Below are positions 4,046 to 46,470 of a stretch of DNA of 64,000 nucleotides, piece by piece. The notes beneath the pieces were generated by a model. The model was not told where the DNA came from, did no database searches, and saw nothing but the letters and a program-made list of their open reading frames with translations. Numbering within the stretch: the stretch's first letter is position 1; every line of letters starts with the position of its first letter. Source of the DNA: Alphaproteobacteria bacterium. Lineage in GTDB: Bacteria; Pseudomonadota; Alphaproteobacteria; RF32; CAG-239. Made by a program: the position numbers and the translations under genes. The stretch spans positions 5,175-69,174 of the forward strand of contig SUUV01000005.1 in NCBI GenBank assembly GCA_015062345.1, in the 5' to 3' direction.

Positions 4046-6310
4046 ATGAAACAAGAACTCTTGGCGCCGGCAGGTGATATTGAAGCCGGATATGCGGCTC
4101 TGTATTATGGTGCAGATGCGGTTTATTTGGGCTTGCAAAAATTTTCGGCTCGTGCAACTGCTACAAACTTTGATGAACATAATTTAAATCAGTTTACGGC
4201 CTATGCACATCATTTGGGGCGAAAAGTATATGCCGCAATCAATACGGTTGTACAAGAAGATGAACTGCCTGATTTATTAAAAATATTAGATGTTTGTTCA
4301 AAATGCAACATAGATGCGGTTATATTGCAAGATTTGGGCGTGGCCCGTGTCATTAAACAATCGTATCCCGAACTTGAGTTGCACGCCAGTACACAAATGG
4401 CTGTTCATAACAAAGAAGGTGCGTTGTTTTTACAAAGTGTGGGCTTTTCCAGAGTTGTTTTGGCTCGTGAACTGACTTTGCCCGAAATTAAAGAAATCGC
4501 CTCAATTGAAGGTCTGGAAACCGAAGCCTTTATTCATGGTGCGTTGTGCTATTCTTATAGCGGATTATGTCAGTTTTCGGCTCTTGAAATCGGACGCAGT
4601 GCCAACAGGGGAAAATGTTTGTACCCTTGCAGAGCATGTTTTGAAAAAAACGGCATCAACAAACATTTCTTTTCAATGAAAGATATGGCTCTCGGTATTG
4701 ATGTCTTAAAAATGCCGGTTACTTCGCTTAAAATTGAAGGTCGTAAAAAAAGCGCACTTTATGTTGCCGCCGTAACCGATTATTACAGGCATATTTTAGA
4801 CGGCAAGGGGGCAGATTATCAAAAAGAAGAACGCATTAAACAAATTTTTTCTCGTCCGTGGTGTAAGTTTCATTTTAACGGAAAATCAAAAGATATTATC
4901 GACAGAGAGTTTGTCGGACACAGAGGATTAAAAATCGGTAAAATCGGCCGAATTTCAAAACAAGGCATTGAGATAAAGCTAAATCATAAAATCGGTCGGT
5001 TTGACGGTTTGCAAATTGATGTCAAAGGCAATGAAAAACCTTTCGGGTTTTCGATACAGAACATTAAACTGAACTCTAAAAATGTTTTTGAGGCCGCAAC
5101 CGGTGATGTCGTTCAAATCGAACTGCCGAAAAAATATCCAAATCTTGAAAAAGGGCTTGATGTATATCTGGCCTCATCAACCGAAGTTAAGGCATCTTAT
5201 CCGTATAAAAAGCCGAAACAAAATGAGTTTATCAATGGTATCAATCTTGATGTAAAGGTTGAGGTTTATCAAGATAACATATTGGCAAAATGTGATAATT
5301 TTGTTTCAAGTGTTGGCGGAAGCTTTGATAAGGCGCAAGATTTATCAAAAGTAACCTTGGCTTTTAAACAAGCATTTGAGAAAACCGGCGGAACTGAATT
5401 TTCATTAAAATCCATAAGTGTAGAAAACTCAGGTAGACTTTTTGTGCCTGTATCAAAAATCAATGAACTGAGGCGAGATTTATACTCTAAAATTGTGCCT
5501 TGCCACAAAAAGGGAACATTACCGACAATCAGCAAAAAAGAAAATGCCGGCTTTAAGGGGTGGATAATTAAAACCGATGATATAAAATGTTTAGAACAAT
5601 TAAATTTGGCCGATTTTGCAGAAATTGTTTATTTGATAAATCCAAAATCTGATGTTTCCGAACTTAAAAAATTGCCCAAAAACAAAGTGCGTATTGCTTT
5701 ACCTGAAGTTTGCCGTAAACCGAAAGTTTTTGAGCCGATTATAAATTCGCTCATCGAGTGCGGATATAAAAAATGGGAAATCGGCAATTATTGGGGGTTT
5801 AGTGCTTTGCCGACCGAAAAACTTGATATTTCGCTTTCATCATCTGTGTATATGCTAAACTCACAAGCTGTTGAACATGCAAAAGAAATGAAAGTTAAAA
5901 GAGTTTGTTTTTCCATTGAAGATACTTTAAGTAATATTAATCTGTTAAATGAAAAAATTTCCTTAACATCTTGTTTTATCGTATATCAAGATGCACCGCT
6001 GTTTATCAGTGCAGGTTGTATCAGAGATTATGATTGTAAAAACTGCAAAGGCGGGGTTGAAATTGCAGAGCTTAAAAAAGATGGCAGAATATATACGGCC
6101 ATATCCCAAAATTGTCAGTTAATGATGTTTAATGACAAGCCGTTATGTTTTGCTGATGAAGCAAAAAATGTTAAGGCAGATTTTTATCGTATGGACTTTT
6201 GCCATAAAAAATATGATGCGTTTAGGGTAAAACAAATTGCCGATAAGTTGATGAATTTTACAGATATTAACGGTTGTGTAAAAGCCAATATTAACAGTCA
6301 AAAAATTTGA
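4046..6310 (+). CDS. U32 family peptidase (long form with C-terminal extension)
   Basis: 754 aa. N-terminal region typical of U32 peptidases (LLAPAGD...AGADAVYLG...; conserved E..H..C.SYSG.C motif EAFIHGALCYSYSGLC). Confidence 0.75.
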   Translation: MKQELLAPAGDIEAGYAALYYGADAVYLGLQKFSARATATNFDEHNLNQFTAYAHHLGRKVYAAINTVVQEDELPDLLKILDVCSKCNIDAVILQDLGVARVIKQSYPELELHASTQMAVHNKEGALFLQSVGFSRVVLARELTLPEIKEIASIEGLETEAFIHGALCYSYSGLCQFSALEIGRSANRGKCLYPCRACFEKNGINKHFFSMKDMALGIDVLKMPVTSLKIEGRKKSALYVAAVTDYYRHILDGKGADYQKEERIKQIFSRPWCKFHFNGKSKDIIDREFVGHRGLKIGKIGRISKQGIEIKLNHKIGRFDGLQIDVKGNEKPFGFSIQNIKLNSKNVFEAATGDVVQIELPKKYPNLEKGLDVYLASSTEVKASYPYKKPKQNEFINGINLDVKVEVYQDNILAKCDNFVSSVGGSFDKAQDLSKVTLAFKQAFEKTGGTEFSLKSISVENSGRLFVPVSKINELRRDLYSKIVPCHKKGTLPTISKKENAGFKGWIIKTDDIKCLEQLNLADFAEIVYLINPKSDVSELKKLPKNKVRIALPEVCRKPKVFEPIINSLIECGYKKWEIGNYWGFSALPTEKLDISLSSSVYMLNSQAVEHAKEMKVKRVCFSIEDTLSNINLLNEKISLTSCFIVYQDAPLFISAGCIRDYDCKNCKGGVEIAELKKDGRIYTAISQNCQLMMFNDKPLCFADEAKNVKADFYRMDFCHKKYDAFRVKQIADKLMNFTDINGCVKANINSQKI

Positions 6311-7134: not shown

Positions 7135-7800
7135 ATGGATAAACTGGAGCAAATTTTAGGCTATCGTTTCAAAAACAAAGCACTTTTAAGGCAAGCGCTT
7201 ACTCATAGCAGTATCACCGGTAATGTGGCAAAAAACTACGAAAGACTTGAGTTTGTCGGTGACAGAGTTTTGGGTATGGCTATGGCGCATTTGCTGTATA
7301 AAATTTTTGATAAAGATGCGGAAGGCTGTTTATCACCGAGACACACTCGTTTGGTCAGGAAAGAAACGGTTGCCGAAGTTGCCTTAAAATTAGGGCTCAA
7401 CGAATATATATCGGCCGAGCCCAAAGAACTTTGCTTTAATGAAAATGTGCTTTGCGATGTAGCCGAAGCCATAATCGGAGCCATTTGTATGGACAGCAAT
7501 TTTGAAACCGCCATAGAATTTGTTGACAGACATTGGAAATATTTGATTAATTCTTCTCAAAGCCCGCTTAAAGATAATAAAACAGCCTTGCAAGAACTTG
7601 CTCATCGCCACAAAGCCGGCAATCCGACTTATGAGACAATCAGAAAAGAGGGAACGGAACACGAACCGTACTTTTTTGTTAAAGTTGTGGTCTCCGAGCT
7701 GGGTGAGGCGGTAGGAAGCGGTAAAAACAAAAAACTTGCCGAACAAGATGCCGCATTGAGAATGATTAAAAAATTGGAAGGTGAATATGCAAAAAAATAA
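7135..7800 (+). CDS. rnc: Ribonuclease III
   Basis: RNase III signature ERLEFVGDRVLG, plus a C-terminal dsRBD (GSGKNKKLAEQDAA). Confidence 0.9.
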   Translation: MDKLEQILGYRFKNKALLRQALTHSSITGNVAKNYERLEFVGDRVLGMAMAHLLYKIFDKDAEGCLSPRHTRLVRKETVAEVALKLGLNEYISAEPKELCFNENVLCDVAEAIIGAICMDSNFETAIEFVDRHWKYLINSSQSPLKDNKTALQELAHRHKAGNPTYETIRKEGTEHEPYFFVKVVVSELGEAVGSGKNKKLAEQDAALRMIKKLEGEYAKK

Positions 7801-10228: not shown

Positions 10229-13200
10229 TTATTTTTGTTTTGTTATAGTACCGCCTGAGGATATATCTTCACCGGTTAGCGGTTTTAACAAACCGGAAGA
10301 AACATTATCATCAGTAACCGTCGGCTTCTTATTTTTTCTGTTGGCCGATTTTGGCTTAACGATTGTACCGCTTGGTGCAATTTTCGGACGATAAGAAACG
10401 GTATTGCTGTCAGACTTGGTGTTTGCTGTCGGCTTTTCCAATATAACATTTGGCGCATCAGCCGCATTTACTTCTTCATCTGTCGAATCTGCAACGGTAA
10501 ACTTACTTCTTTTTGCCGGTTGTTCCGTGTTGTCTTTTAAGATTAATAACGGTTTTGAAGCATCTTGTATCGGCGCGGATTTTGGCAAAATTTGAGAAAT
10601 TTCTCCTTCTTCCAAGATAATAATTTTTGAGTCTTGTTTATCATTATCTTTTAGTAAATTTTCATCTTCTTGCTCGTTTTCCTGAGATTCTTCTTTTTCT
10701 TTTTGAGCTGCTTTCAAGGCTTCTTGCTTTTTGATATTTTCATCTTCTTCTTTACGAACAATATCTTTGGCATAATCAAACAAATCTTGCATTGCTTGGT
10801 TAAGAGTTTGCATTTCGGTTTCAATTTTTGCAGATGTCTCTTTGAGCAAATCAAATTGCAATTCCATATGCGAAATGTCTTCTTTAAGTTCAATTTCGTT
10901 TTTGTTGTTTAAGGCCTTATTATGCAAATCGGCAATATCTCTCAATGAGGTTTCAATTTTGTTTTTATAATCGGCCACTTTGGGCTCGTTATCCAAAATA
11001 ACCAGCGAATTAATGTCAATTAATCTTTTAACATATGCGTTTAATGTGTCTTGATAATTAAGACCTTTATTAAGCGAGTTATCATAAGTGTTTTTAACCA
11101 ATGCATAATTTTCATTTGCCAAATTCTTAATGTCAGTAATATGGTGAGCTTCAATTTCTCTTTTCATATTATTAAGTTCAGATTCGAAAACTTCTGTTTT
11201 TGCATTAATTTGCGTTATCTGTTCATCAGCAAACTCTTGCTTAGCCAGATTTTGCATTTTCAACAATTCAGACAACATATCTTCGGCAATTTTTAACGAA
11301 CTGTCAAATTTGTTTTTAGATGCTACATTAGAACTTATTTTCGCATACTTTTTAATATTTGGTAACATTTCTTTTTCAAGATTGTTTTTGAGCTTTTCAA
11401 CCATATCTTGAGCTGAGTTCATTCTGTTATTAAGGTCTTCAATTCGAGCCTTTTCGGCTGCCTCTTGCTCCAGACGAACTTTTTCCCAGTAGGTATCATA
11501 TTTGTCTTTCAATGCAGAGCTGTTAATCACTAAATTCGGATTATTAAGCGAATCTGTCCACTTATACTCAATCGGAACAATTTTCTCTTTTAACTGATTG
11601 TATGTTAAGGCAAAATCTAAATTAACATTCCAATCGGTTAAATCTGCACTTCCTTTTGCGGTAACAATGGCGCGGTTTGAGTCCATATGAGCATTTTTGA
11701 TTGATATATTACCATTTTTGATGTCAAAATCAGCTTTTATATTGTAAAAGTTTGTTTCACCGCTTTGCAAGTTTGTTCTTAACATTTCATACAAACCGTC
11801 AGAGTGAGTTCTGCTTTTAACATCTTTTTCAATTGCATCTAAATCCCAACCCTTAAAGGCAGAATCTGCTATTTCAACAAAGGCTGAGCCGTTCAAACCT
11901 TTCACAAAGTTTTCTTCCGAAGTAACCGGTGCTATAAACTCAACCGTTGCATTTAGCAATCCGTCGGTAAACTCATATTTTTTACCGCCGAAATCGGATA
12001 TGTCGGCATCTTTTATATCAAATTTTGCTTTTATGCTCGGGGTGGCATTTATATCAATAGCAATGTCGGCATTATATTTTGCATTATCTTGTGTTGCCGA
12101 TATGTTTTTGATGTCAATTAAGCCTTGTTTTATGCTGATATCTGCTTTGGTGTTTTCAAAATTATGCCCGTTTATACTGAAATTATCGGCCGAAAATTTG
12201 CCGTCAAGTTCAAAAGTTTTATAAAATCCGTAATCAATTTTGACATTTTCATAAGTCGGTCTTTTCAAAAAGTTTAATGAAGTGTCAATGGTTTTTGATT
12301 TTTTGACTTGCTTAATGTTTAAATTTTCCGGATTGTAAATAAAACGGTTAAATTCAAACTTATTGGCATGCAAATTGGCCATAATTTTAGGAAAATCATT
12401 GATTGTAACCGAAAAATCACCGGCAAAATTGTTTGAACCGATAAAAGCATCAACATTATTTACCGACCAATTGTTATTATTTCCTTTAAGGTCGGCTTTA
12501 AATGTAAATATGTTTGCAGCCATCTGTTGCGGGTTATATTTATATCCGATACGATTAACAAAATCAACAAAATCAGGATATCTGAACTCAATATTGCCTC
12601 GATAATTTACCATTCCGTCCGCATTAAATATTTGTCCCGCATAAACCGAACTTAATTTATCAAGTGTAGTAATGGCTTTGATGTTAATATTATTAATATT
12701 GCCGCTGAAAATTCCTTTTGCATTAATATTTTGAGCGTCGGCAATAAGCTTTACTTTAGGAAGCGGTAAAGAAAATTTTTCAACAAAATCTTTAAACTTG
12801 GCAGTCTTGAAATTGTATTTTATGTTTTTAAAGTGTGGCATATCGGCGATATTATCCACATTGCCCGATAAGGACAAAACAGAATTGTTGATATTTTCAA
12901 TATTAAATTTTTCTATTTTAATATTTTCTTCGTCGGTAGTAAATTTTAAGGCAGATTTTTCAAATGCGATGCCGTTATAAACACCTAAATCTAAACTTGT
13001 ATTTACATTAAAATCAAAATTGTTCAAAAATTTAAACTTGTTTAATACCAATTTAAGTCTTTCGTTAAACGGAAGTTTCTTCTCATCTTCGTTTAAGTGC
13101 GGTATATAATTATCAAAGTTAATGCTATCGGCTTTTAACGATATAAACACATTGTTTCTTTTATCTCTTGCAATTCCGATTAAACCTTCAATCGAGGTTT

Positions 13201-14629
13201 TATCCATTTTAAAATCAATCGGAGCAATTTTGACTTGTTTTAAGTTTCCTTCCATAACAAAGTTTGCTGAAGCATTGCGATAAGTAGATTGAGCGTATGT
13301 GTCGGGTTTTAATTTTATATGATCTAAAAACTTTAGAAAATCTTGGCTGAGCATATTAACATTGAAACGATAGGATAACATTTTTTCATTTTCAAAAATA
13401 TCACCATTAACATTTATATCGGTGTCGCCCGAAAACAATCCGGACAGAGCCTTAATGGTGAAAACATCGTTTATTAAATCGGCACTGAAGTTAAAATTGC
13501 GCACAGGTTGATTGTTAAAAGTTGCTTTTACGGCCTTAATGTCGGTAATTAGGTCAAAATCATAATATGGTGCATATTCGGCATTATCAGCGTCAAGCTT
13601 TTTAAGTTGTTCCTTTATAATTCCGATGATGGGCATTAAATCTAAATCGGTCATTTCAAAAAAGGCTTCTATTTTTCTTTTTTCTTCATTCGGATTTGGC
13701 TTTAACGGAATTAAAACATTTCCGGCACCGGCGGTGTTATCGCCATATTTAATGATAAAGCTTGATAAATCAATTTGTCTTTCGTTGGTAATCAGCTCAA
13801 TGGACGAGGCTAAAGGATAATTAAATTCTGCGGGCAATATAACCTGATTGGTTAAACTGTTGATAAAATCAGACGGTTTTTTCGATTCTACTATAAAATT
13901 ACCCTTAATTTCTTTGTTGCTTGAAAGCATGGAGCCGTCAAAACGAGCATAACTTTCGGTTGTAGGATGTGTTAACACCAAGTTTAACGATGTGGCAAAA
14001 CTTTCCGACAATGTACCCAAGTTTAAGGCAAATCCGGCCGGATTGCCGTCTTTTATAAAGTTACCGTCAATTCGATACGGACCGAACAAACTTTCGGCAG
14101 TAACTTCGGCATTTAAGTTCTGTAAAGTAATGTCAAGACCTAAACCATCGTTTAATATTTCAACGGAAGCATTTTTTAACAAAACACTGTTTAAGGCTAC
14201 ATCAACGGTATCAAGTTTGTCTTTTTGAAAATCACTGATTTTTGAATACCAGTTTATTTTACCGTCAGAAAGAAAAGCGATTAAAATTTTGGCATCAAGC
14301 AAAGTCATATTTTCAATGACAAAATTACCCTTAATTAAAGGAACTAAAGCAAGGTCTGTAACCATCTCATCAATAACGGCAAGAGGTTTGTCAGAGCTTT
14401 CACCGGAGTTGTTATAAATTTTTATATCTTTTGCCGACAAGTACGGTGACGGTAAAAACGAAAGTGATACCGGCCCTTCAAAGACAATTTTTTTGCCCGA
14501 TATTTCTTCAAATTGCTCGGCAATTTTACTTTTATGCAAATTCCAGTCAATGGTAGATACATACACCGATAAACCGCCAAATGCCAATGCTACAACGAGT
14601 ACCAAAATGAAGAATATTTTTTTAATCAC
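10229..14629 (-). CDS. AsmA-family giant envelope protein (1466 aa) with C-terminal coiled-coil and low-complexity tail
   Basis: N-terminal TM helix plus AsmA-like start (IFFILVLVVALAFGGLSVYVSTIDWNL...). Long beta-rich middle. Acidic coiled-coil (KEKEESQENEQEDENLL) and a Ser/Thr/Pro/Lys-rich C-terminus. Confidence 0.6.
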   Translation of the reverse strand: MIKKIFFILVLVVALAFGGLSVYVSTIDWNLHKSKIAEQFEEISGKKIVFEGPVSLSFLPSPYLSAKDIKIYNNSGESSDKPLAVIDEMVTDLALVPLIKGNFVIENMTLLDAKILIAFLSDGKINWYSKISDFQKDKLDTVDVALNSVLLKNASVEILNDGLGLDITLQNLNAEVTAESLFGPYRIDGNFIKDGNPAGFALNLGTLSESFATSLNLVLTHPTTESYARFDGSMLSSNKEIKGNFIVESKKPSDFINSLTNQVILPAEFNYPLASSIELITNERQIDLSSFIIKYGDNTAGAGNVLIPLKPNPNEEKRKIEAFFEMTDLDLMPIIGIIKEQLKKLDADNAEYAPYYDFDLITDIKAVKATFNNQPVRNFNFSADLINDVFTIKALSGLFSGDTDINVNGDIFENEKMLSYRFNVNMLSQDFLKFLDHIKLKPDTYAQSTYRNASANFVMEGNLKQVKIAPIDFKMDKTSIEGLIGIARDKRNNVFISLKADSINFDNYIPHLNEDEKKLPFNERLKLVLNKFKFLNNFDFNVNTSLDLGVYNGIAFEKSALKFTTDEENIKIEKFNIENINNSVLSLSGNVDNIADMPHFKNIKYNFKTAKFKDFVEKFSLPLPKVKLIADAQNINAKGIFSGNINNINIKAITTLDKLSSVYAGQIFNADGMVNYRGNIEFRYPDFVDFVNRIGYKYNPQQMAANIFTFKADLKGNNNNWSVNNVDAFIGSNNFAGDFSVTINDFPKIMANLHANKFEFNRFIYNPENLNIKQVKKSKTIDTSLNFLKRPTYENVKIDYGFYKTFELDGKFSADNFSINGHNFENTKADISIKQGLIDIKNISATQDNAKYNADIAIDINATPSIKAKFDIKDADISDFGGKKYEFTDGLLNATVEFIAPVTSEENFVKGLNGSAFVEIADSAFKGWDLDAIEKDVKSRTHSDGLYEMLRTNLQSGETNFYNIKADFDIKNGNISIKNAHMDSNRAIVTAKGSADLTDWNVNLDFALTYNQLKEKIVPIEYKWTDSLNNPNLVINSSALKDKYDTYWEKVRLEQEAAEKARIEDLNNRMNSAQDMVEKLKNNLEKEMLPNIKKYAKISSNVASKNKFDSSLKIAEDMLSELLKMQNLAKQEFADEQITQINAKTEVFESELNNMKREIEAHHITDIKNLANENYALVKNTYDNSLNKGLNYQDTLNAYVKRLIDINSLVILDNEPKVADYKNKIETSLRDIADLHNKALNNKNEIELKEDISHMELQFDLLKETSAKIETEMQTLNQAMQDLFDYAKDIVRKEEDENIKKQEALKAAQKEKEESQENEQEDENLLKDNDKQDSKIIILEEGEISQILPKSAPIQDASKPLLILKDNTEQPAKRSKFTVADSTDEEVNAADAPNVILEKPTANTKSDSNTVSYRPKIAPSGTIVKPKSANRKNKKPTVTDDNVSSGLLKPLTGEDISSGGTITKQK

Positions 14630-41113: not shown

Positions 41114-41188
41114 TGTTATTAAGTGCTAAAAGCAATTGAGATTTTTATAGGCTCTTGGTATGCTTGGTCATTAATAAGGAGATAAGTT

Positions 41189-41770
41189 ATGACTAAAGTT
41201 GCCGTGTGGTGCCGTCATCAAAATGATAACATAATCGGAATAGGCCCTCATATTCCGTGGCATATATCATCAGATTTTAAGCGTTTCAGAAGAATTACCG
41301 AAGGACAAAACATTGTTGCCGGCGAAAAAACATATGAAAGTTTCCCGAACAGAACTTTGCCGAACAGAAAAATTTATGTTTTGACCTTAAACAAAAATTA
41401 TGAAGTATCAGATAAAGAAAATCATTTTGTGGTGAGTGATATCAATAATTTTCAAGAATTTGAACAAGATCTATACATTTCCGGCGGCGCCACGATATAT
41501 AAACTTTTTATGAACAAACATGAAAAATTGATGCCGGACATTGTGGTTGACAGTATGTATAAAGGTGAAATTAATCCTGATTTAAAGGGTGATAAAATTG
41601 ATATTTCCGAATGTATTGAAATTATGAGTAAAAAATATTTCAAAATTTCATCAGATTATGAAGAAGATAATATCACAACCACCGTTTGGGTTAAAAAAGG
41701 TGATTTTGTTGAACAATCGGTCTTAAAAAGAATCATTTTAGCAATTGAAAATAAAGGAGCTGTAAGATGA
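41189..41770 (+). CDS. folA: Dihydrofolate reductase-like protein (with ~35-aa C-terminal extension)
   Basis: Aligns with E. coli DHFR: IGIGPHIPWHISSDFKRF (PW...D motif), NIVAGEKTYESF, LPNRKIYVLT, LYISGGATIYKLF. Confidence 0.65.
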   Translation: MTKVAVWCRHQNDNIIGIGPHIPWHISSDFKRFRRITEGQNIVAGEKTYESFPNRTLPNRKIYVLTLNKNYEVSDKENHFVVSDINNFQEFEQDLYISGGATIYKLFMNKHEKLMPDIVVDSMYKGEINPDLKGDKIDISECIEIMSKKYFKISSDYEEDNITTTVWVKKGDFVEQSVLKRIILAIENKGAVR

Positions 41771-42222
41771 AAGAATTAATAAAGTCATATAAAGACAAAG
41801 ACGAGATTTTAAGCGATTATGAAAGTTTTAAGAACAACTGGCAATATGATATTGAAAATGAAAAAGGCGAGCATTTAAGCGGATTAAAGATTGAGAAAAA
41901 TATAAACTCAATAAAATATGTCAATTTGCAAGAATGGGCAGGAAATATGCACGATAAGGAACATTTGACAAGCGAAGAAATTGAAAATTTCCGAATTTGC
42001 TTAAAAAACCAGTTTATCATCATCAACACCAAGAATCCGGCTCCCGAGCCTGTGCTTGACTATGAAACCGAAAAACAAAGATATATTGCAAGAAATAAAC
42101 GCATGGTTAATGCAGCAAGAGAAAACGGCAGAGATGAAACATATCTTAAACAAATGGAGCAAGATTTAAACCATATGATGTATGAATATCTTGAAAGGGT
42201 ATTTGGTGGAAAAGGCAGATAA
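41767..42222 (+). CDS. Hypothetical protein (151 aa), first gene of a module inserted between folA and thyA
   Basis: Its start overlaps the folA stop (ATGA). No recognisable motif. Confidence 0.4.
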   Translation: MKELIKSYKDKDEILSDYESFKNNWQYDIENEKGEHLSGLKIEKNINSIKYVNLQEWAGNMHDKEHLTSEEIENFRICLKNQFIIINTKNPAPEPVLDYETEKQRYIARNKRMVNAARENGRDETYLKQMEQDLNHMMYEYLERVFGGKGR

Positions 42223-43498
42223 TTACATCGAAAGTTTTTTGGATAATGCAACTTTTAAAAATATAAACGAGCCGGTTGCATTGTTCTTTTCGTATGTAGA
42301 TACTGAATTTTTTGAATATTATAAGACCGACAAAAAAGAGCTTATAAATATTAACAGTGTTCGTAAGAACCAGTTGATTGATTTTTTGGAGGGAGCAAAA
42401 TATTTAGTGGTTGCGGAAGATAATATTTTAGCCTCACATCCGGCAACAATTGTGGTTAGCAACCGAGGCATTCAAACTCCTTTTTTAGAACCCGATAAAG
42501 CCAAAGACTTTGCTTATGATATGCTATCATATATAGAAAGCACCGGTTTTGTTAAAGTAATGAGCAAAGTTTTGGCGATTCGCTTAAGTCAACTTCCGGC
42601 ACCCGAATTAGAAAAAGGCGGACAACCGATTGTATATTCTCACTTAAAACACCCTGATAAAAAAGTTGTCGATTACATTAATTATCGTTACGGAAAAGAT
42701 TTTATCAATCAACAATATAAATATGCTTGGTCACAAGGACTTGATACTGCGCAAAAGAAAAAACAAATTCCAGATATTGCTGATTTGAGTCAAGATTTAT
42801 ATTCAGGACGCAAATTTACCGTTCATCCGTATTATTCATATGCAAACAAAGACTTAGAATCGAGATATCATACTTATGCCACCCCTCATTATGTACATGC
42901 GGCAAAGTTTTGCGGGCAAAAATATGCCCCATTCGGCCTTATCCACCATTATCAAAAATCTGAAAATCAGGTCTATTATGATGATTATGCCATAGAATAT
43001 AACGGAAAACCGGAAACTACTGTTGATAAACAACTTGAAACTATTGTTGTACCAAAGGACAACGAATATAACGGACTCGAAATGTATATGGATACTCGTT
43101 ACTATATGATACCTGACGATGAAGAAAGTTGGATAGCCTTTAAAGAAAATTTAAGAGCTTCATATATACCGTTAAATGAATATTTAAAAAACCGAAGAAT
43201 AAACATCTTAAAAGAAGCCAAAGATAATGGAAACAGAGCTAAAACTTATTTTCCCATAGGTTTGGATTTACAAAATCTATTGCTTGAAAATTATCATCCA
43301 CAAAATGCAACATTAGATGATGTTTTAATTGATAATAATGTCATTTTAAAGCATTATAAAAGCAATGCTGATTTTGAAGCCTCAATTAAACAAATGCAAC
43401 AAAAAGTTAATCAGGCAAAACAAATTGATAATTCAAAAGAAATTAAACAAACGGCAAAAGTAATAAATACAATTGAAAATAAAGGAGCTGTAAGATGA
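42182..43498 (+). CDS. Hypothetical His/Tyr-rich protein (438 aa), second gene of the inserted module
   Basis: Overlaps the previous ORF by 41 nt in a different frame, with no clear RBS at the annotated ATG. Its C-terminus IENKGAVR is encoded by the duplicated folA/thyA junction. Confidence 0.4.
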
Positions 43499-44280
43499 AA
43501 CAATATCTTGATTTATTGCAGGACATTTTAGATAACGGAGTTGATAAACTCGACCGTACCGGTGTCGGTACTCGCTCGGTGTTCGGTCGGCAAATGCGTT
43601 TTGATTTAAGCAAGGGTTTTCCGCTTGTCACAACCAAAAAAGTTCACTTAAAAAGCATTATACATGAGCTTTTGTGGTTTATAAAAGGCGACACTAATAT
43701 CAAATATTTGCAAGATAACGGTGTGCGCATCTGGAATGAGTGGGCTGATGAAAACGGCGATTTAGGTCCGGTTTACGGCTCACAATGGCGCAATTGGAAC
43801 GGAGACGGTATCGACCAATTATCTGATGTAATTGAGCGCTTAAAGACCAATCCCAATGATAGAAGAATGATTGTTTCGGCTTGGAATGTGAGCAAAATTT
43901 CAAAGATGAAATTACCGCCCTGTCATATGATGTTTCAGTTTTATGTAGCAAACAACAAGCTTTCTTGTATGTTGTACCAAAGGTCATGCGATATGTTCTT
44001 AGGTGTTCCGTTTAACATTGCATCATATGCGCTTTTAACAATGATGATTGCGCAAGTTTGCGGCCTTGAAGTCGGTGAATTTGTGCACACTTTGGGTGAT
44101 ACACACATTTATCACAACCATTTTGAGCAAGTAAAAGAACAACTTTCACACACTCCGCTTAAATTACCGACAATGAAAATCAATCCGTCGGTTAAAGATA
44201 TAAATGACTTTAAGTTTGAAGATTTTGAACTTGTCGGATATGAAAGCTACGGAGTTATAAAAGGAAAAGTAGCCGTATAA
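43495..44280 (+). CDS. thyA: Thymidylate synthase (ThyA type)
   Basis: Near-colinear with E. coli ThyA: MKQYL..L...DRTGTGT, catalytic PCH, SAWN, DTHIY. 261 aa. Confidence 0.95.
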
Positions 44281-44291
44281 CGGTTTTATAA

Positions 44292-44326
44292 AACACCGCC
44301 TCTTTCATAAGAGGCGGTGGGTTTGT
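44292..44326 (+). terminator. Rho-independent terminator after thyA
   Basis: caccgcctct-ttcata-agaggcggtg followed by GGTTTGT. Confidence 0.5.
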
Positions 44327-44378: not shown

Positions 44379-44813
44379 TTAATAAGTCCTTGTTAATGTA
44401 AATGAACCTTCGTATACTCCTGCTGCAACATTAGCGGGGATATGTAATGCTGTAAACAAGCTGTTCATCTCGTTTGAAGCACCATATACAAGTGTCAAAA
44501 CATCATCACTGGTTGAAGATAAAAGGTCTAGAGTATTCTCTATATCATCATTACCAAAATCGTTCACATTGCACACAACATCTCCGCTTCCACTCATGGA
44601 TATAAAATCTTCACTTTCACTCATATTATCTTCAATTACCATATCTTCATTGTCTTGTTTAACAACAATAGTACCATAATCAAGGTTGTTACAAGTAAAA
44701 GTGCCTGCTACTTGAATTGTTGCCTTAGCGGTTACTTCTGCGTAGTCGGTGGTTGCGTTGGCGGTGCTTGTGAGCATTAAAGCCACAGCTGATAAAAGAA
44801 AATATTTTCTCAT
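44379..44813 (-). CDS. Secreted SCPU-domain family protein, paralog 5 (acidic, Asp/Glu/Ser-rich)
   Basis: MRKYFLLSAVALMLTSTANA; CNNLDYGTIVVKQDN; LHIPANVAAGVYEGSFTLTRTY. Confidence 0.6.
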   Translation of the reverse strand: MRKYFLLSAVALMLTSTANATTDYAEVTAKATIQVAGTFTCNNLDYGTIVVKQDNEDMVIEDNMSESEDFISMSGSGDVVCNVNDFGNDDIENTLDLLSSTSDDVLTLVYGASNEMNSLFTALHIPANVAAGVYEGSFTLTRTY

Positions 44814-44953
44814 TTTTAAAATTCCTTTACAAAAATAGTTAAACTTAATTTGAAAGGCAAAAATTTACCTTTCACATCGCATCATAAACCGTTTTTTTTT
44901 TTTGCAAGTAAAAAGAGTCTAATTGTGGATTTAAATCAAAAATGAGGTAAAAA
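44814..44953 (-). promoter_or_regulatory. Conserved family promoter/leader cassette (copy C) with T12 (44892-44903)
   Basis: Same cassette. Confidence 0.6.
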
Positions 44954-45594
44954 CATATTGACTTTGATGCTTTTTTTTATAATTCTTAATAAGGGGGATG
45001 CGGATTATGATTGAAATGAAAGAAAAATTGACCGGTACACGCATATATTTGCAAAAGCCTGAGGTGAGTTTTGAGTTTGCAAAAAAAATGTTTGCGGTTG
45101 TTGATGCCAACAGAGATATCATTATGCCATGGTTAGAGTGGGCACTGCCAACTATTACAAAATCTGCGGAAGATGATTTTGCATTTGCCTATGAGGCTGA
45201 TAAGGCTTGGAAAACAGGTGAGCGTTTTGAATATCCGATATACGATATTAATAACGATGAATTTTTGGGTATAATTGGTGTGATAAAAAGAGGGAAAGAC
45301 CGAAATTTGGCATTTGAGCTTGGCTATTGGCTCAAAAAAGATGCTTGGAAAAAAGGATATATCCAAGAGGCAATCAAATTGGTTGAAGATGAGCTCTTTG
45401 CCCAAGGTATTGTGCGGATTACCATAAGAGCTGATGTGGAAAATGAAAATTCAAACAAAACAGCCCAAAAAGCCGGATATACTTTTGAAGGCACATTGAA
45501 AAAAAGTCACTATAATATGTGTTTGCATCAGTTTAGGGACCTGAATTTGTATTCTAAAACAAAAGCATAAATTCTAAATATTTCTAAAAGCGAA

Positions 45595-45850
45595 GATGTT
45601 TTTCTGACCTACCGCACAGCGCAGGTCGAAACATAACTTTTATTTAAAATCGGAAAATATTTGTTTTTTATCCTCATACTTTGAAACCGCCTCCTAACTG
45701 TCACTCCGGCACTTGATGCCAGAGTCCGCCTCCTCACTGTCACTCCGGCACTTGATGCCGGAGTCCAGGTGGTAATATAGCTAAATTATTCCCTGGATAC
45801 CGGTGTCTATTCCAAGCTAAAGCTTGGGCACCAGTATGACGGTGATGAGA
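45595..45850. repeat. Structured ~270-bp repeat element, right copy (inverted relative to 9871-10140)
   Basis: Reverse-complement match to the left copy. Contains two tandem ~36-bp units (ctgtcactccggcacttgatgcc[a/g]gagtcc), each with a CCGGCA...TGCCGG hairpin. Confidence 0.7.
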
Positions 45851-45862
45851 GAGACACCTCTA

Positions 45863-45993
45863 CATCAAATTTGATTTAAATCCACAAATAGACTCTTTTT
45901 ACTTGCAAAAAAAAAAAACGGTTTATGATGTGATGTGAAAGGGCATTTTTGCACCTTTCAAATTAAGTTTAACTATTTTTAAGGATTAAAATT
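45863..45993 (+). promoter_or_regulatory. Conserved family promoter/leader cassette (copy D) with A12 (45907-45918)
   Basis: Same cassette on the + strand: cTTGCAA(A)10CGGTT-TATGAT...AAGGATTAAAATT-ATG. Confidence 0.6.
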
Positions 45994-46470
45994 ATGAGAA
46001 AATATTTTCTTTTATCTGCCGTTGCTCTCTTGGCTGCAACATCTGCAAATGCAACCACCGATTACGCTGAAGTAACAGCTCGTGCTACCATTGAAGTGGC
46101 TGGTAAAATAAGTTGTACTGATATGAACTTCGGCACTATCGTTGTTAAAAAAGACAATGCAGAATCTGTTGTAGATATGAACTATATCTTTAATGACGAG
46201 TCTTATTGGGATGTATCTACTCAAGGTGATATTATATCCATAACAGGATACGATTTAACAAAATGTGAAAATGGCTTTCTTGCTATGGGTGACCCATATC
46301 ATCCGGAATTTCCGAGCGAAATTACTTTATCTAACGGTACAAGCAAGATTACTGTAACCGATGTGTATTATGATGGAGAAAAAGTATCTTCAGCCAAATT
46401 ACACATTCCGGCAAAGGTAACCGGTGGAGAATATACAACATCATTTACTATCCAACAGGTAATGCCATAA
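45994..46470 (+). CDS. Secreted SCPU-domain family protein, paralog 6
   Basis: MRKYFLLSAVALLAATSANA; CTDMNFGTIVVKKDN; KLHIPAKVTGGEYTTSFTIQQV. Confidence 0.6.
   Translation: MRKYFLLSAVALLAATSANATTDYAEVTARATIEVAGKISCTDMNFGTIVVKKDNAESVVDMNYIFNDESYWDVSTQGDIISITGYDLTKCENGFLAMGDPYHPEFPSEITLSNGTSKITVTDVYYDGEKVSSAKLHIPAKVTGGEYTTSFTIQQVMP

Follow-up and report, generated by a model that had tools for sequence, protein, structure and literature searches.

The genes folA and thyA, encoding dihydrofolate reductase (DHFR) and thymidylate synthase, are separated by a pair of unannotated genes in the DNA stretch analysed here, 64,000 nucleotides of contig SUUV01000005.1 from an Alphaproteobacteria bacterium (assembly GCA_015062345.1; hereafter the window). 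folA (41189-41770, + strand, 193 aa) matched Pfam DHFR_1 (1e-26) and PHROG 316, and thyA (43495-44280, + strand, 261 aa) matched Pfam Thymidylat_synt (8e-128). The DHFR_1 match spans only residues 6-122 of the 193-aa protein; the C-terminal ~70 residues are divergent and conserved within the clade. Between the two genes lie ORF151 (41767-42222, + strand), whose small product has no known domain and is a candidate antidote or antitoxin, and ORF438 (42182-43498, + strand), encoding a large protein and candidate toxin. Our comparisons support the view that these genes form a 1.7-kb module which was inserted between folA and thyA in an ancestor of this gut Alphaproteobacteria group, and around which the junction of the two host genes was duplicated.

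The module is bracketed by a 31-bp direct repeat, CAATTGAAAATAAAGGAGCTGTAAGATGAAA, with two exact copies on the + strand at 41742-41772 (J1) and 43470-43500 (J2) in an exact search of the window. The original prediction had described these two copies correctly but placed them 3 nt too high. A third copy with up to 3 mismatches was not present in the window, and 100 dinucleotide-preserving shuffles gave 0 matches. In a repeat search the pair extended to 35 nt with one mismatch. J1, which was also aligned with relatives having empty or occupied sites, comprises the last 8 codons and the stop codon of folA, a Shine-Dalgarno sequence, an ATGA overlap and codons 1-2 (MK) of ORF151. J2 comprises the tail of ORF438, an ATGA overlap and codons 1-2 (MK) of thyA. 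Both junctions read as had been claimed: each copy contains AAAGGAG, a 7-nt spacer and the ATGA stop/start overlap, and IENKGAVR is the C-terminus of both DHFR and ORF438. The copies are 1728 nt apart, corresponding to 576 codons and thus a multiple of three. The unique inserted DNA between them (1697 bp, 41773-43469, + strand), delimited by comparison with the empty sites of the relatives L043, L047 and L050 (L007 to L050 denote loci on contigs of relatives compared with the window), has no start codon at its left end and no stop codon at its right end. Its GC content equals that of the surroundings, and a compositionally foreign origin was therefore rejected.

The open reading frames were bounded as previously described, but a family alignment (A2) makes GTG 42206 or TTG 42203 the more likely start of ORF438 than ATG 42182. 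All three candidate starts overlap the end of ORF151, by 17-41 nt. A JGI contig that is 99.97% identical and represents the window's own strain (L027, 1090-2405, corresponding to 42182-43498 of the window) carries a single 1-nt indel splitting ORF438 into reading frames of 391 and 34 aa; this frameshift may be a true polymorphism or an artefact of the assembly.

Upstream of folA, a promoter-like sequence (TTGAGA-17-TATGCT with TG extension; 41136-41164, + strand; consensus match only) is the probable promoter of a four-gene operon, and this sequence also occurs upstream of folA in the relative L023. The sole terminator-like hairpin downstream of the operon is strong and GC-rich and lies 3' of thyA (44294-44319; called on the minus strand by the scan and listed here without strand). 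Between the two genes folA and thyA the scan detected no terminator-like site on the + strand.

Direct adjacency of folA and thyA in related genomes, which the original prediction had named as a check, was found in three groups of relatives. At these unoccupied sites the folA TAA is directly followed by the thyA ATG: ...gcaattgaaaataatggagaattaTAAATGaaacaatatctt in L043-L046 (84% aa identity in DHFR; the upstream Abhydrolase_2 gene is shared), ...ggagaaataTAAATGaaacaa in L047 (79%) and ...ggagaaTAAaaATGaaacaa in L050. A search with the DHFR returned more than 470 homologues; the 120 listed have about 190 aa, and most of them end in ...AIE(N/E/A)(K/N/G)GE... Since more than 100 DHFRs of the clade share the AIENKG tail, the 5' half of the 31-mer can be assigned to the native folA tail. 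The tails of ORF438-family proteins vary in length and sequence (alignment A2), for which reason the last 8 residues of ORF438 are regarded as borrowed. The empty sites and the conserved DHFR tail thus identify the repeat as the folA/thyA junction duplicated around the insert. Together with the occurrence of the module elsewhere, they bear out the insertion with junction duplication proposed before.

Two side observations concern these homologues. One DHFR with 65% identity (P0148) lies on an 829-kb contig labelled Lactobacillaceae, which may be a mislabel or a transfer. In the empty-site relative L044, genes for a tyrosine integrase (442 aa) and a serine resolvase (190 aa) are located about 2 kb downstream of thyA (4129-6161).

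The sequence itself shows that the duplication leaves DHFR its native C-terminus and stop codon. ORF151 is translated from the copied thyA Shine-Dalgarno sequence and ATG, with only its MK codons lying in the repeat, and ORF438 reads through the copied folA tail to a stop overlapping the thyA ATG. It follows from the junction duplication that the four genes are arranged in one promoter-to-terminator unit with overlapping stop and start codons. To judge from this arrangement, translation of thyA is probably still coupled to the upstream gene, which is now ORF438. The locus is a clear natural case of a foreign gene pair residing in an essential, translationally coupled operon without breaking it, every gene keeping or gaining a ribosome-binding site, start and stop through the duplicated junction.

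The same insertion with the same fusion points is present in L037-L042 and L023-L026, and in reduced form in L048 and L049. In L037-L042 (DHFR 90%), J2 is identical to that of the window and J1 differs in two adjacent bases (GCTTAAAG vs GCTGTAAG), so that 29 of the 31 positions of the repeat agree; the J2 of L036 is identical to that of the window as well. In L023-L026 (folA 77% at nucleotide level; L023 itself 78%) the junctions are no longer identical to each other and have diverged to ggaTAAaccggtATGaaagaa (J1) and caactgaaataaatataggagaagaaagATGAaacaa (J2). ORF151 is intact in this group, and ORF438 has lost about 1.1 kb, leaving its first ~20 and last ~35 codons. In L048 and L049 a 198-bp scar, 90% identical to the L023 module, is all that is left of the module.

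Between the window and L023, the synonymous divergence (dS) of ORF151 (1.27) about equals that of thyA (1.36). The insertion is therefore old, since the module has diverged together with its flank. These values and the diverged L023 junctions contradict a recent event. In the window as in L037, the two copies share GGAGCT as derived bases, while the empty sites and the L023 J2 have GGAGAA. As these derived bases are common to both copies of an old insertion, the perfect identity should come from later copying between the two junctions or recent re-import. We infer that the 31/31 identity is secondary, due to gene conversion or concerted evolution or to a recent recombinational import, and not the scar of a fresh insertion.

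An exchange of this kind is visible between the window and L037. The nucleotide identity is 73.5% for the upstream gene, 87% for folA, 94% for ORF151, 96% for ORF438 and 97% for thyA; the sequences downstream of thyA share no homology. The dS values show the same trend (folA 0.64, ORF151 0.28, ORF438 0.13, thyA 0.14). From this profile it follows that the folA-thyA block was recently exchanged between species by recombination. For this one pair the comparison shows that the module persists and spreads through its position between folA and thyA, conserved essential genes that serve as homology arms in such interspecies recombination.

In a DHFR tree, occupied or remnant sites fall into three sub-lineages, two of which have a confirmed empty site nearby. 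L048 (remnant) and L050 (empty) share 94-95% identity. An import of the L048 remnant from an L023-like donor was rejected, since the flanks are uniformly ~5% diverged from L050 without an L023-like patch; accordingly, this pair fits loss as well as gain. What survives in the decayed relatives is the two ends of the module, the thyA-proximal junction among them, which fits selection on thyA expression. Erosion of the module proceeds by deletions that take the large gene and spare the small gene and the junction signals. Taken together, the relatives display the full life cycle: the intact module, its exchange between species, its gutting, its reduction to a 198-bp scar and its absence. The samples ERZ28593983 (L048/L009) and SRR14556448 (L049/L011) contain, besides the 198-bp folA-thyA remnant, an intact divergent module (51% identity) upstream of rpoB. 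If L048 and L009 (or L049 and L011) come from one genome, that genome would combine a dead module at folA-thyA with a live one upstream of rpoB.

Besides folA-thyA, the module is found in several other contexts. The close homologues of ORF438 number 35 (35-51% identity, 407-454 aa). They lie in metagenome-assembled genomes (MAGs) that bear the label Alphaproteobacteria and whose sources include human and roe-deer samples. A homologue of ORF151 (28-75% identity) lies directly upstream of the ORF438 homologue at every locus examined. The genes are co-oriented, small then large, with intergenic gaps of 0-3 nt at the other loci, and thus show the gene order of type II toxin-antitoxin (TA) systems (adjacent, co-oriented, small gene first, overlapping or abutting). 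The neighbourhoods elsewhere are pepA/sua5...hupB/fabH, upstream of rpoB, and glgB...rpsD, and never folA/thyA. The occurrence in unrelated contexts indicates that the module is self-contained and not tied to dTMP synthesis. In L009 it adjoins two zeta-toxin-like genes and a recombinase gene. ORF151-like genes are present in four tandem copies in L016 (3965-5996) and in two copies in L009 (4909-6000), and L017 has a solo extra copy at 12808-13242, 5.5 kb downstream of the module.

Further features were noticed at these loci. The island upstream of the module and rpoB in L009 (363-4798) encodes a tyrosine recombinase, two zeta-toxin-like proteins each preceded by a small open reading frame, and a 386-aa protein with a weak SspB match. 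In L007, a human-gut MAG, and likewise in L017, a 28-nt direct repeat brackets the module (5418-5445 and 7498-7525, CAACTTATRCACA...CGGACTCGTAAA, 89% identity) and includes the DnaA-box-like sequence TTATRCACA. The related L018 lacks a 216-bp segment that follows the large gene of L007 and is flanked there by a perfect 19-nt repeat (7276-7294 and 7492-7510); in L018 one repeat copy stands right after the stop codon.

An exhaustive profile search extended the ORF438 family to about 118 clusters at 50% identity, mostly metagenomic, with uncultured gut Alphaproteobacteria among the sources and with members of up to 1618 aa. No cluster names were found for the distant homologues. No Pfam, PADLOC or NCBIfam match explained the conserved core; the leucine-rich repeat (LRR) match of one long member is unrelated. 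The structure model of ORF438 predicts an N-terminal ferredoxin-like alpha/beta domain (about aa 30-135), a domain with the ADP-ribosyltransferase (ART) fold (about aa 155-352) and a variable C-terminal tail. The predicted domain shows the split beta-sheet NAD+-binding core that characterises the ART fold, and among bacterial structures it comes closest to the Rhs toxin TreX. A Foldseek search of the PDB with the full-length model returned nothing significant, with cholera toxin and LT recurring at E-values of 0.1-1. On the basis of the model we place ORF438 in the ART superfamily at fold level only.

Among polar positions, conservation across 89 members is strongest at an aromatic-R-G motif (in the close subfamily S-G-R210), at Y232-A-[S/T]234, at E272 and at E286-T287. 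R210 matches R208 in distant homologues. E286-T287 is invariant in 76 of 77 sequences and is preceded by Q284 (Q284-x-E286) in the close subfamily only. In the predicted model, the conserved [YFW]-R-G / S-G-R, Y-A-[ST] and E286 are located at strand ends or starts. Cholera- and C3-type ARTs have an R-S-(Q/E)xE arrangement, and R210, T234 and Q284-x-E286 form a candidate catalytic triad whose layout in the model resembles that of these enzymes. The His/Tyr-rich strings of ORF438 were considered as an HUH or Tyr nuclease motif and rejected, because the wider family does not conserve these residues and only structural residues are kept in the N-terminal domain. The family, with its conserved ART-fold core and conserved small partner, is new to annotation, being unannotated in all libraries searched, and we found nothing in the literature on this arrangement or family.

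The large gene is damaged independently at several loci, to which the indel of L027 may be added. Residues ~81-264 are missing in L019, ~45-331 in L021 and ~30-400 in L023, and only residues 16-101 and 16-41 are left in L020 and L022, respectively. The small gene is intact in L019, L020, L021 and L023; the contig of L022 covers only its 3' end. At loci with two intact genes, the ratios of nonsynonymous to synonymous divergence (dN/dS) are 0.10 for ORF151 and 0.15 for ORF438 and indicate purifying selection on both. In L023, where its partner is gone, ORF151 is still constrained (0.11). The repeated damage to the large gene, combined with a kept or amplified small gene, favours a model of a toxin with a protective partner, in which ORF438 would be the toxin and ORF151 would neutralise it. 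Taken as a step by itself, the toxin/antidote reading has in our view an about even chance. For the locus as a whole, we consider the old insertion of a selfish toxin/antidote-like pair without functional tie to folate a moderately probable explanation. If the pair is a true toxin and antidote, it adds a new ART toxin family.

Several observations weigh against this explanation. No ART family of Pfam was matched even at E<=10 among 21 members of the ORF438 family, and sequence-profile searches of the PDB with the alignments A2, A3 and A4 gave only chance matches and no ART. Searches of Pfam, NCBIfam, PADLOC, PHROG and PDB profiles thus provided no sequence-level link of ORF438 to ART, TA or defence families. 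Some distant homologues have 1000-1600 aa, a size more typical of secreted effectors. The ORF151 family had no match in Pfam, NCBIfam, PADLOC or PDB profile searches, and no DNA-binding domain or antitoxin fold that would place it in an antitoxin family was recognisable. (Kinship of ORF151 with the C-terminal helix of ORF438, considered for their similar 'A[RK]ENG' strings, was rejected at an hhalign probability of 0.1.) For both copies to share GGAGCT, gene conversion must have acted over no more than 31 bp of homology, a possible but inefficient process. The 31-bp duplication may have arisen by staggered breaks, template switching or an att-like event, and the gain/loss history is compatible with several precise losses via the repeats or with lateral gains.

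ORF438 might alternatively be a host- or competitor-directed ART effector, with ORF151 as its chaperone or immunity protein, and not part of an intracellular addiction module. This would agree with the predicted ART fold, with the immunity protein of the structural neighbour TreX, with the very long, multi-domain distant homologues (one with an LRR domain) and with the tandem arrays of the small gene, which resemble immunity-gene arrays. However, the translation of ORF438 shows no obvious hydrophobic signal sequence at the N-terminus, a trafficking domain is not recognisable (no Pfam match), and secretion-system genes are not adjacent in the loci examined. Immunity genes usually lie 3' of their toxin gene, whereas the small gene precedes the large one here, and in the long homologues the ART domain is not C-terminal. 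We regard the effector explanation as unlikely.

The selfish cassette of the original prediction, supposed to use short-repeat recombination, agrees with a toxin/antidote-like pair spreading via conserved flanks, but no evidence points to the 31-mer as a mobility site and no further copies were found. Further copies of the 31-mer would, according to the original prediction, mark additional insertion sites; no other copy exists in the window, and metagenome scans gave 0 matches for the 31-mer and 1 irrelevant match for a relaxed J2 pattern. As an actively mobile cassette, the module would be excised and integrated between the repeats, the 31-mer being an attachment site or a long target-site duplication by a dedicated recombinase, either the palm/HUH-like N-terminal domain of ORF438 or an enzyme in trans. 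Repeat-mediated excision would leave folA-31mer-thyA with ...TTTTAGCAATTGAAAATAAAGGAGCTGTAAGATGAAACAATATC, and a circle or tandem form ...GTAATAAATA-31mer-GAATTAATAAAG. We consider this quite unlikely. The module has no integrase or transposase domain, the ends of the insert carry no terminal inverted repeats, and the conserved N-terminal residues of ORF438 are structural (G, P, A, V) without an HUH- or Tyr-type motif. A tblastn search with two integrases and one resolvase produced chance matches only, as a weak test confined to the window. A flanking repeat is absent at most other module loci, module and flanks co-diverge, and the documented transfer carried thyA and part of folA, as homologous recombination does. 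Homologues of the module were found neither in phage and plasmid collections (tblastn) nor in a viral-contig scan. Active repeat-mediated mobility of the module is thus unproven and unlikely.

A further alternative holds that the 31-bp identity is not the footprint of an insertion at all, and that of two unrelated junctions one was later copied over the other for an advantageous coupling signal. Some copying is required by GGAGCT in both copies, as opposed to GGAGAA in the empty sites and the L023 J2, and the junctions of L023 differ strongly in their 3' halves. Yet the ORF438-thyA junctions of L023 and L048 still have the folA-tail-like CAACTGAAATAAATATAGGAG / GAAATAAATGTAGGAG, to which the ORF438 family's own tails bear no relation. 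From the folA-tail-like J2 in L023 and L048 it follows that a folA-tail duplication at J2 predates the split of the occupied lineages, and we assign little probability to this alternative.

We see only a slight chance for an operon-parasitic cassette without its own promoter, start and stop, which would integrate at coupled junctions with duplication of ~30 bp, the ORF438 family providing integration chemistry (palm/HUH-like domain) or addiction; the 28-nt repeat of L007 and L017 would be its second example. A function in thymidylate or folate metabolism, as a DHFR/ThyA regulator or modifier or an enzyme on thymine-containing substrates that was recruited for co-expression, is highly improbable: the single tightly coupled transcription unit, the purifying selection on both genes in the window and a conceivable thymine-related target (the ART toxin DarT targets thymidine in single-stranded DNA) speak for it, but homologous modules adjoin pepA/sua5, rpoB, glgB/rpsD and others instead of folA/thyA, the module decays at this very site (large gene deleted in L023, 198 bp left in L048), and close relatives function with the bare folA-thyA junction. 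The favoured explanation, an old selfish insertion, changes no major concept and removes this unsupported metabolic link.

Downstream of thyA the window contains a GNAT acetyltransferase gene (44998-45570; Pfam Acetyltransf_3, 6e-17) bracketed by a 90-nt inverted repeat with 91% complementarity (arms 44860-44949 and 45861-45950). Outside this repeat lie two divergently oriented paralogous genes for small proteins, at 44379-44813 (- strand) and 45994-46470 (+ strand), both of which begin with MRKYFLLSAVAL...TTDYAEVTA and have no Pfam match. The region 44379-46470 looks like an inverted duplication around the GNAT gene. Two tandem 39-nt units downstream of this gene (45687-45764, 95% identity), together forming a 23-nt inverted repeat (ACTCCGGCACTTGATGCC[A/G]GAGT), may be a terminator-like element or one resembling repetitive extragenic palindromic (REP) sequences.

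Compared with known systems, the insert does not correspond to a transposon or insertion sequence, as transposase domain and inverted repeats are missing and the duplication of 31 bp exceeds the typical 2-15 bp. It is similar to integrative islands and prophages at the 3' ends of genes in that a direct repeat at both ends rebuilds the folA 3' end and keeps the gene intact, the identical core restoring the DHFR tail and stop, and in that only some of the relatives carry it, the same site being empty in others. In contrast to such islands, it has only 1.7 kb and is fused in frame at both ends without its own start or stop, no integrase or cognate recombinase was found in module or window (a weak test), and its spread carried flanking thyA/folA sequence, pointing to homologous recombination. 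T4-like phages carry free-standing homing-endonuclease genes and other selfish ORFs between conserved genes; one such place is their frd (DHFR)-td (thymidylate synthase) region, which has an ATGA overlap and the td intron. The module resembles these in its position between conserved essential genes, in the use of flank homology for transfer and in its cycle of gain, decay and loss, and the folA/thyA-type adjacency with a 4-nt stop/start overlap recalls frd-td. It differs in having no detectable nuclease domain or motif, a bacterial chromosome as host and no phage or viral homologues among those searched.

The module is most like the systems composed of an ART toxin and a partner, such as DarT-DarG, ParT-ParS, MbcT-MbcA, Res-Xre and the Rhs toxin TreX with TriX, without sequence similarity to any of them. 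ORF438, with ~430 aa, has an extra N-terminal ferredoxin-like domain compared to these ART toxins, and ORF151 (~150 aa) differs from DarG- and Xre-type partners in having no macrodomain, Xre/HTH domain or other known antitoxin fold. The small gene kept beside a gutted large gene in L020, L021 and L023, and the solo copy in L017, resemble orphan antitoxin or immunity genes; unlike at such loci, both genes are intact and constrained in the window.

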